From: Dehalococcoidia bacterium
Lineage (GTDB): Bacteria; Chloroflexota; Dehalococcoidia; UBA6926
NCBI GenBank assembly: GCA_965247995.1
Contig: OZ252041.1
Span: 1,218,444-1,282,443, forward strand
Direction of reading: 5' to 3'
DNA length: 64,000 nucleotides
Shown: positions 43,440 through 43,770 of the stretch, piece after piece
How the letters are laid out: each line of letters starts with the position of its first letter
How positions within the stretch are numbered: the stretch's first letter is position 1
Made by a program: the position numbers and the translations under genes
Notes under the pieces: generated by a model
Seen by the model: only the letters and a program-made list of their open reading frames with translations
Databases searched by the model: none
Told to the model about the DNA's origin: nothing

Positions 43440-43770
43440 GTTCGAAAAAACTGGACTAGGTGGGCTACCGCCTATCTGGCTCAGATAGAGACCACTGCGC
43501 CGAGGCGACTGGTCTTACTGGACTACTTCGTATCTATAACCACATTTGTCAACTGGACTAGGACTGGACTAGGGCACTGGACTAACTGGACTAGCGACTG
43601 GACTACCTCTCTCAGATATGAATCAGGGTTCGGTCCCTATCTGAGTAGTCCAGTTAGTCCAGTTAGTCCAGTGAAAACAGGAGGCCCCCCCAGGGAAAAC
43701 CGTTACGTACACACGCGACGTGCGTGCGAGCGCGCGCGCTCGCGAGGCAAACCGTGATTCCTATCTGGCG
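43440..43770. repeat. Iteron array / putative replication origin
   Basis: 7 direct copies ACTGGACTA (43450-43605), 3 tandem inverted copies TAGTCCAGT (43646-43672), palindromes CTATCTG-GCT-CAGATAG (43472-43488) and CTCAGATA...TATCTGAG, 18-bp GC palindrome GCGAGCGCGCGCGCTCGC (43726-43743). Confidence 0.6.

Follow-up and report, generated by a model that had tools for sequence, protein, structure and literature searches.

A candidate SaPI-type replication origin directly downstream of a primase-helicase gene in a mobile element of a Dehalococcoidia bacterium

We analysed a 64-kb stretch (the window) of contig OZ252041.1 from a Dehalococcoidia bacterium, in which an array of short direct and inverted repeats (iterons) directly follows the gene for an 886-aa primase-helicase (40771–43431, plus strand; an alternative GTG start at 40723 would give 902 aa). 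The segment 43450–43745 is very probably the vegetative replication origin, of the Staphylococcus aureus pathogenicity island (SaPI) type, of a mobile element integrated beside a tRNA-Asp gene, with the primase-helicase as proposed initiator. A first-pass annotation of the window had already called a candidate origin here. That call is now supported, mainly by comparison with 11 relatives of the element, in the position and spacing of the repeats and in their linkage to the primase-helicase gene.

The array is built on the 9-mer ACTGGACTA. Counting both strands, the window holds 11 exact copies, 10 of them within 223 bp (43450–43672) and the sole other at 19191. With one mismatch allowed there were 15 matches; dinucleotide-preserving shuffles gave 5.9 ± 2.4, and 0 of 100 reached 15. 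The repeats are thus specific to this locus rather than dispersed, and likewise in the 11 relatives, where nearly all exact copies per 5–23 kb locus lie no more than 600 bp after the primase stop. Seven of the exact copies in the array are direct and three inverted. The first begins 19 bp 3′ of the primase-helicase stop (43431) and belongs to a left outer pair (43450–43467, plus strand), in which the exact copy at 43450–43458 is followed by the degenerate GGTGGGCTA at 43459–43467. A second pair (43508–43525, plus strand) has the opposite order, degenerate ACTGGTCTT at 43508–43516 and then an exact copy at 43517–43525. Five more direct iterons (43552–43605, plus strand) start at 43552, 43563, 43576, 43585 and 43597, spaced by 11, 13, 9 and 12 bp. 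A central 40-bp spacer (43606–43645; 50% GC vs 62% for the window) separates these from three tandem inverted iterons, TAGTCCAGT repeated with a 9-bp period on the minus strand (43646–43672; copies at 43646, 43655 and 43664). Degenerate copies included, there are 12 sites, nine direct and three inverted.

Every repeat, palindrome and recurring motif listed in the first-pass annotation was present in the sequence. It had placed them in about 330 bp of non-coding DNA after the primase stop; the DNA is indeed non-coding, with no codon-position (third-position) GC periodicity across it, but the gap measures 511 bp (43432–43942). An open reading frame (ORF) of 109 codons called across the repeats (43428–43757, plus strand) had been dismissed as spurious, and we agree: it lacks third-position GC periodicity and any Pfam match, its translation is that of the repeats (NWT and SPV repeats: NWT..., SPVSPVSPV), and no credible homologue was found in the relatives (best tblastn E 0.023, over a conserved DNA block).

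Full-length relatives of the primase-helicase number only about a dozen, at 48–58% identity, and its matches in genome collections were metagenome-assembled genomes of Dehalococcoidia. Eleven relatives' loci (L001 and L015–L024) had usable downstream DNA, making 12 elements with that of the window. An iteron array occupied the gap directly 3′ of the stop in 12 of 12. The arrays share a layout: a tandem pair with 9-bp spacing, placed equivalently to the left outer pair of the window; one or two isolated sites; two triplets with spacings of 9–11 bp; a spacer; and two or three inverted copies at 9 bp. Offsets were, for example, 28, 37; 73; 96, 107, 117; 140, 149, 160; and 215, 224 (inverted) in L001, and 29, 38; 74; 97, 108, 118; 132, 141, 152; and 200, 209, 218 (inverted) in L016. 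Site counts ranged over 7–10 direct and 2–3 inverted copies. The central spacer was 35–59 bp long with a GC fraction of 0.14–0.49 in 10 of the 11 relatives, the exception being L018 (103 bp, GC 0.55). It was well below local GC in 11 of 12 loci (0.14–0.50 vs 0.55–0.66), and in six of the 12 the least stable 30-mer of the gap fell inside it.

The repeat itself differs from element to element: ACTGGACTA, AGTGGACTA, AGTGGWCAA, GGTGGTCAC, AGTGGTAAC, GGTGGGGCA (L016), GGTGGGGAC, GTGTGGCA, GCGGTCACA, GCGGKCAAG and GYGGGCCAG. Aligned on their shared GG, these follow the form (A/G)G(T/C)GG plus four variable bases, the variable halves being ACTA (window and L024), WCAA, KCAA, TCAC (twice), TAAC, GGCA (twice), GGAC and GCCA. 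The window iteron is unusual in having CTGG instead of GTGG, and that of L017, ACTGCGCGCGG, departs from the consensus form. When 33 element ORFs were compared with all loci by tblastn, only the primase-helicase proved common to all 12 elements. Conserved position, divergent sequence and exclusive linkage to one protein are together the signature of an array that co-evolves with its reader. The comparison supports an evolutionarily maintained array of putative protein-specific binding sites, tied to the primase-helicase gene.

The relatives that came out of the metagenome and additional viral scans were all distant, among them low-GC viral contigs whose proteins are 28–32% identical in the C-terminal domain. 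Five of these (L030–L034) carry direct and inverted iterons after the stop; L028 has three short tandem copies only, and L029 has no evident array. Among the close relatives, the L018 array (L018:12680–12960) combines its own AGTGGTAAC iterons with several ACTGCGCGCGG motifs, the repeats of L017 (L017:12660–12920). The two contigs come from one sample, ERZ26167216, and the mixture may reflect cross-talk or a hybrid origin.

The primase-helicase (P0001 in its 886-aa database form) is predicted to start with a DnaG-type primase (Zn ribbon and Toprim), followed by a DUF927/MCM-like helicase in the middle and, at the C-terminus, a helical bundle with a winged helix. Its Pfam matches (Zn_ribbon_DnaG, Toprim_2 and DUF927) were all weak; TIGR01391 dnaG matched at 1.4e-13, and a PDB profile search also returned primases. 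A model of the whole protein (predicted local distance difference test, pLDDT, 74.6) matched the Aquifex DnaG primase (2au3, 1.5e-9), SaPIbov1 Rep (8tch, 2.8e-9) and Cch (5dgk, 2e-8) of the staphylococcal cassette chromosome mec (SCCmec) in Foldseek, with no superfamily 3 (SF3) chain among matches at E ≤ 0.001. The last 187 residues, modelled by AlphaFold from a 13-sequence alignment (pLDDT 88.7), form a helical bundle, a small sheet and a winged helix. SaPIbov1 Rep (8tch) was the best structural match of this winged helix as well as of the helicase body. By these matches the protein is predicted to be a hexameric AAA+ helicase with a C-terminal winged helix, as are SaPI-type initiators. The predicted winged helix (residues ∼801–862) is encoded at 43171–43356 (plus strand) and its wing hairpin (residues 846–862, motif RLTARLSVNSRQHRVL) at 43306–43356 (plus strand), with strands 846–851 and 854–862 around an invariant Asn-Gly turn. 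The ORF is intact and all family-invariant residues are present.

Over the last 230 nt of the gene (43200–43430) the highest codon-position GC moves from position 3 to position 1; this part encodes the Arg/Gly/Ala/Val-rich winged helix and tail, with nothing to suggest a frameshift. Disorder is predicted for the final 12 residues, which are specific to this element. A profile of the C-terminal domain hit 4135 metagenome clusters (50% identity, E ≤ 1e-3), mostly as the C-terminus of proteins of 800–1000 aa; some 2000 clusters scored E ≤ 1e-10 and roughly 30 scored E ≤ 1e-30. Sampled members combined it with DUF927 and with DnaG-type, Prim-Pol, RepB-primase or DUF3854 N-termini. The family is large but has no name.

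The origin that we propose would work as follows. Binding of the 886-aa protein to the 9-bp iterons would occur via its C-terminal winged-helix domain, whose wing and recognition helix would contact a conserved half, (A/G)GTGG (CTGG here), and a 4-nt element-specific half (ACTA here). Since nine sites lie to the left of the 40-bp low-GC spacer and three opposed sites to its right, they could direct two oppositely oriented helicase assemblies. These would melt the DNA between or beside them, the spacer (43606–43645) being the proposed melting region. The helicase rings would then load themselves, and the fused DnaG-type primase would lay the first primers. A host polymerase would take over, and the excised element would replicate by the theta mode. 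Each origin would stay private to its own initiator through the element-specific half of the iteron.

A different use of the same sites would be as operators, with the primase-helicase or an HTH_17/MerR-like protein repressing or activating the downstream genes, or with the array terminating or insulating the primase operon. The array does lie between two co-oriented gene blocks; in the relatives a conserved GC block (see below) stops ∼30 bp before the next gene, and an HTH_17/MerR-like gene lies upstream in at least five elements. Such a role could even coexist with origin function, as plasmid iterons serve in autoregulation. As the sole function of the array we consider it unlikely. A promoter scan of the gap found no sigma-70-like site, and its terminator-like matches amounted to a C-run on the minus strand only. 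The downstream gene varies between elements, whereas the array is always 3′ of the primase-helicase. Twelve sites far exceed the needs of an operator, and opposed sets around a low-GC spacer, together with an initiator-like reader domain, are features of origins. In number and density the short direct repeats also resemble ParR-type centromeres; plasmid parC-type arrays have ∼10 direct repeats. On that account the iterons would be a partition site bound by an adaptor, or a copy-control site at which the initiator brings about handcuffing. L017 does encode a ParB_N/HTH_ParB protein downstream. No ParA/ParM or ParB/ParR gene adjoins the window array, however, and none is common to the family. 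The array is tied to a helicase gene and not to a partition gene, and its inverted set and low-GC spacer would be left unexplained; we regard a partition or copy-control site as highly improbable.

A replication origin finds its closest parallel in the SaPIs. SaPI origins have 6–12 iterons immediately downstream of rep, opposed around an AT-rich centre and read by the C-terminal winged helix of Rep, and two hexamers are thought to load there (PMC9371898). The window shares the position immediately 3′ of the helicase gene (as do all 12 elements), the many short, element-specific iterons opposed around a lower-GC centre with at least two on each side (9 + 3), and, as predicted, the reader, a C-terminal winged helix of a hexameric initiator-helicase. 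Fusion of primase and helicase also has a SaPI precedent, PriRep5 of SaPI5 (PMC9371898), the fused primase here being DnaG-type. The differences are that the iterons here are 9 bp and bipartite (a shared GTGG half and a 4-nt private half) rather than 5–6 nt, that the array is strongly asymmetric (9 vs 3 sites), that extra conserved modules accompany it (G/C-run brackets, AAAACCGTTACG and an alternating purine-pyrimidine tract, described below), and that the host is Dehalococcoidia-like and not Staphylococcus, with no packaging genes found in our scans. The first-pass annotation had likened the array to the origins of SaPIs and other phage-inducible chromosomal islands (PICIs) and to plasmid theta origins. 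The SaPI part of this holds for the protein, through the Foldseek matches to 8tch and 5dgk; no PICI hallmark and no Rep_3-like protein turned up among the ORFs scanned.

Cch, a DUF927 protein of SCCmec, is related to SaPIbov1 Rep, and the direct repeats to which Cch2 binds are intergenic, just 3′ of its own gene (PMC7581432). The window system resembles this in its predicted helicase body, in the DUF927 matches within the family and in the serine recombinases alongside the helicase. SCCmec has a separate primase, CCPol-MP, and only three Cch2 iterons, whereas here the primase is fused and there are 12 sites including an inverted set. In phage P4, short iterons are read by the C-terminal domain of the alpha protein, and replication needs two separated loci, ori and crr, unlike the single iteron cluster here. 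P4 alpha has a DnaG-type primase, a hexameric helicase and a C-terminal winged-helix origin-binding domain in the same order as our protein (PMC2777425), but its helicase is of SF3, whereas the one here resembles the MCM-like Rep/Cch group. Iteron theta plasmids have direct repeats beside rep and an AT-rich unwinding element, and iteron-Rep specificity defines their incompatibility (PMC4980987). Plasmids of the Rep_3 class (RepA/pi/TrfA) are alike in the repeat cluster beside the rep gene and the AT-rich element, and unlike in their WH1-WH2 Reps without helicase or primase, their dependence on host DnaA/DnaB/DnaG, and their iterons of 17–22 bp as opposed to 9 bp. We found no Rep_3-like protein among the ORFs scanned and, by eye only, no convincing DnaA box; TCGTATCTGCACA and TATAACCACA were considered as DnaA boxes and rejected, matching at 6–7 of 9 positions (again by eye).

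Of all columns in the 886-residue alignment, residue 855, in the second wing strand, was the best match to iteron position +1 (normalised mutual information 0.88), with Gln/Asn paired to A, Val/Ile to T and Arg to G. Residue 850, in the first wing strand, follows iteron positions +3/+4: Arg with AC, Ser with TA or CA, and Met/Thr with AA. The window protein has Ser850 and Gln855. By the geometry of a two-residue turn, residues 848, 850, 855 and 857 would lie on one face of the hairpin. Arg is conserved at 848 and 857, except that L001 carries Asn at the latter (HNV for HRV) and has GTGT for GTGG. In a tree from the rest of the protein, identical residue and iteron classes appear in non-sister lineages. 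These pairings are chemically sensible, and we treat them as a good lead rather than a result. When protein segments were compared with iteron distance in a sliding-window Mantel analysis, no clear peak emerged (maximum r 0.39); the signal at the wing came from the column-wise analysis only.

To the right of the inverted iterons is a second feature conserved at the DNA level, a block at 43696–43744. It consists of AAAACCGTTACG (43696–43707), an alternating purine-pyrimidine tract TACGTACACACGCG (43704–43717) and the perfect 18-bp palindrome GCGAGCGCGCGCGCTCGC (43726–43743). In the alignment of the elements the block reads (A)AAACCGTTACG and then a CG-rich alternating purine-pyrimidine tract. 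The 11-mer AAACCGTTACG occurs only once in the window and recurs, identical and in the same position, in L001, L015 and L016. An alternating run of at least 12 nt was found at the block in 10 of the 11 loci scored, where it is among very few such runs per locus. The 18-bp GC palindrome picked out by the first-pass annotation is one instance of this conserved tract. The block is kept between elements whose initiators are only ∼50% identical. No Rfam family matched it, a search of 43300–44050 giving only a chance-level match to an internal ribosome entry site (E 0.37), so this GC block corresponds to no known RNA.

We tentatively combine these two features in a further reading, which we hold to be possible but doubtful. 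In its first part, a two-residue wing code made up of residues 850 and 855, with Arg848 and Arg857 flanking them, would determine the 4-nt private half of the iteron; a mutually orthogonal replicon series would then exist within one lineage. In its second part, the right-hand block (C-run, AAAACCGTTACG and alternating tract) would be a new functional part of the origin and might serve as a primase start site or as a torsion-absorbing, Z-DNA-prone element.

Homopolymer runs flank the arrays. Runs of G or C of 5–10 nt beside A/T runs bracket them in the relatives, with a G-run and T-run on the left in 6–7 relatives and a complementary A-run and C-run on the right in most. In L001 the brackets form a perfect 37-nt inverted repeat (L001:12642–12678 and 12848–12884). 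In eight of 12 close relatives and in five of five distant low-GC relatives, the inverted iterons are followed by an A/T-run with a G/C run of 5 or more. The C7–C8 run is kept even in the latter (L030–L034), ∼200–230 bp 3′ of the stop. The window has the right-hand bracket only, GAAAACAGGAGG followed by a C7 run beside the inverted iterons (43673–43691). We considered these G-run/T-run brackets as bidirectional intrinsic terminators and rejected the idea; several are homopolymer runs that cannot form hairpins.

The window as a whole is bacterial chromosome, with genes for RNase Y, Ffh, SbcC, ATP synthase, sulfate assimilation and GltX. A foreign-looking gene block starts directly 3′ of tRNA-Asp (37115–37193). 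Besides the primase-helicase, it encodes an MerR/HTH_17-like protein, a pol-beta-thumb protein, a MazG-like pyrophosphatase, an N6/N4 methylase, an ASCH protein, a dCTP-deaminase/dUTPase-like protein and a 167-aa serine-recombinase catalytic domain. This last (52626–53129) is the only recombinase seen; it is XisF/CcrB-like and lacks the C-terminal DNA-binding part. PHROGs and Pfam scans of ∼30 element ORFs returned only replication, nucleotide-metabolism, methylase and recombinase functions, and no virion, packaging, terminase or capsid gene. Nor did they return any hallmark of PICIs or satellites (capsid-redirection genes, small-terminase genes or a master repressor), although absent homologues are weak evidence. 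Phage records contained no near-identical match to the DNA of the region, and a protein search matched only two unannotated gut contigs at 24–27% identity; the element is therefore not a known phage.

This setting bears on whether the array could be a site for recombination or packaging, that is, arm-type sites of an integrase or recombinase (attP, res) or a terminase pac/cos array. Integrase arm-type sites are short repeats in both orientations, and many of the elements have serine or tyrosine recombinase genes. Yet the array is intact and internal in chromosomally integrated elements, and is therefore not a split attP. The recombinase genes are kilobases from the array and vary in type from one element to the next, and the scans of the window's element detected no terminase or capsid gene that a packaging site would serve. 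We give such a site almost no credence.

Several observations weigh against the origin assignment or the initiator we propose for it. No downstream direct repeat (att) of the tRNA-Asp 3′ end was found. The AT-richness of the centre is weak in this window, its spacer having 50% GC. A nearest-neighbour stability scan placed the least stable 30-mer of the gap elsewhere, at 43523–43552 (ctacttcgtatctataaccacatttgtcaa). That 30-mer holds the conserved TCGTATCT... and ATTTGTCAA elements, and TCGTATCTG is found also in L001, L015 and L019. The DUF927 (PF06048) score of the window protein, 20.1 bits, is under the Pfam gathering cut-off of 22.6, which six of 10 sampled proteins with the same C-terminal domain pass (25–35 bits). 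The ATPase core is poorly predicted (pLDDT 33–47 for residues 531–627). Every element has its own iteron, and the test of cognate specificity rests on the covariation at residues 850 and 855, for which permutation p was ∼0.07 (best column) and ∼0.11 (best 12-residue window) at a sample size that stayed n = 11; the L001 iteron was, moreover, re-registered to fit. The HTH_17/MerR-like protein encoded upstream in several elements may be the iteron binder instead.

Some of these points could also mean that the origin has decayed, the element being a cryptic remnant that no longer replicates. The window array is without the left G-run/T-run bracket of the 6–7 relatives, its spacer is the least AT-rich of the 11 arrays so built (the 103-bp spacer of L018, 55% GC, being atypical), the serine recombinase is reduced to its catalytic domain, and the att repeat is missing. 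Ten exact iterons and an intact primase-helicase ORF argue the other way; decay should have degraded both. We think decay very unlikely. None of the rival explanations accounts jointly for the exclusive helicase linkage, the two opposed sets of sites, the spacer of low GC and the Rep-like reader domain.

That an origin should lie beside its initiator gene is textbook knowledge. What is added here is a probable origin of a known type in a little-studied lineage, with its own repeat in each relative and with extra conserved modules. To our knowledge there are no plasmids or genetic tools for this Dehalococcoidia-like group. The gene at 40771–43431 and the gap to ∼43750 would make a concrete minimal replicon of ∼3.2 kb native to the lineage, and the dozen relatives offer ready-made, probably orthogonal variants for a genetically intractable group. 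More widely, the combination of a self-loading DUF927/Rep-type initiator with iterons would reach well beyond staphylococci, to ∼4100 clusters and four or more primase types. The iteron and wing variants that occur naturally could serve as a compact system for the study of DNA reading by winged helices.

A second motif, TATCT(G/A), often within CCTATCTG or TATATCT, is scattered among the iterons. Its sites in the window are 43471–43478, 43482–43487, 43533–43538, 43613–43618, 43636–43643 and 43760–43767. It occurs at equivalent places in L001, L015, L016, L017 and L019, whichever iteron the element carries; many elements have 4–6 copies per array, with two paired copies within the spacer. It may be the site for a conserved factor of the host or the element. 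CCTATCTG itself has three copies in the window, all within the gap (43471, 43636 and 43760); the third, CCTATCTG(GC) at 43760–43769 (plus strand), is to the right of the GC block. The CTCAGATAG palindromes of the first-pass annotation are inverted pairs of TATCTG. One is CTATCTG-gct-CAGATAG (43472–43488), two inverted copies that overlap the 10-mer CCTATCTGGC at 43471–43480, itself one of two occurrences; the other is CTCAGATA...TATCTGAG, inside the central spacer.

A 15-mer of the right-hand block, AAAACCGTTACGYAC, had 47 matches in viral contigs, mostly by chance, and only one, in L054 (IMGVR_UViG_2788499961_000005), had an iteron array next to it. This unrelated contig, found only through the exact 15-mer AAAACCGTTACGCAC, shows the same design at L054:4400–4720: CTCCCGCA iterons, a very AT-rich spacer of ∼55 bp, four inverted copies, and then AAAACCGTTACGCAC. 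Proteins near the array had no Pfam match and no similarity to the window's primase-helicase.

The gene after the gap (43943–44293, plus strand, 116 aa) probably starts at a GTG at 43943 behind GGAAGGGAG, and is not conserved in the relatives. Farther right in the window, a minus-strand ORF of 1208 aa with no Pfam match (58600–62226) contains ∼11–15 tandem 24-nt repeats and three repeats of 75–78 nt, at 59132–59491 and 60662–60898; it looks like a repetitive protein at or beyond the right side of the element.

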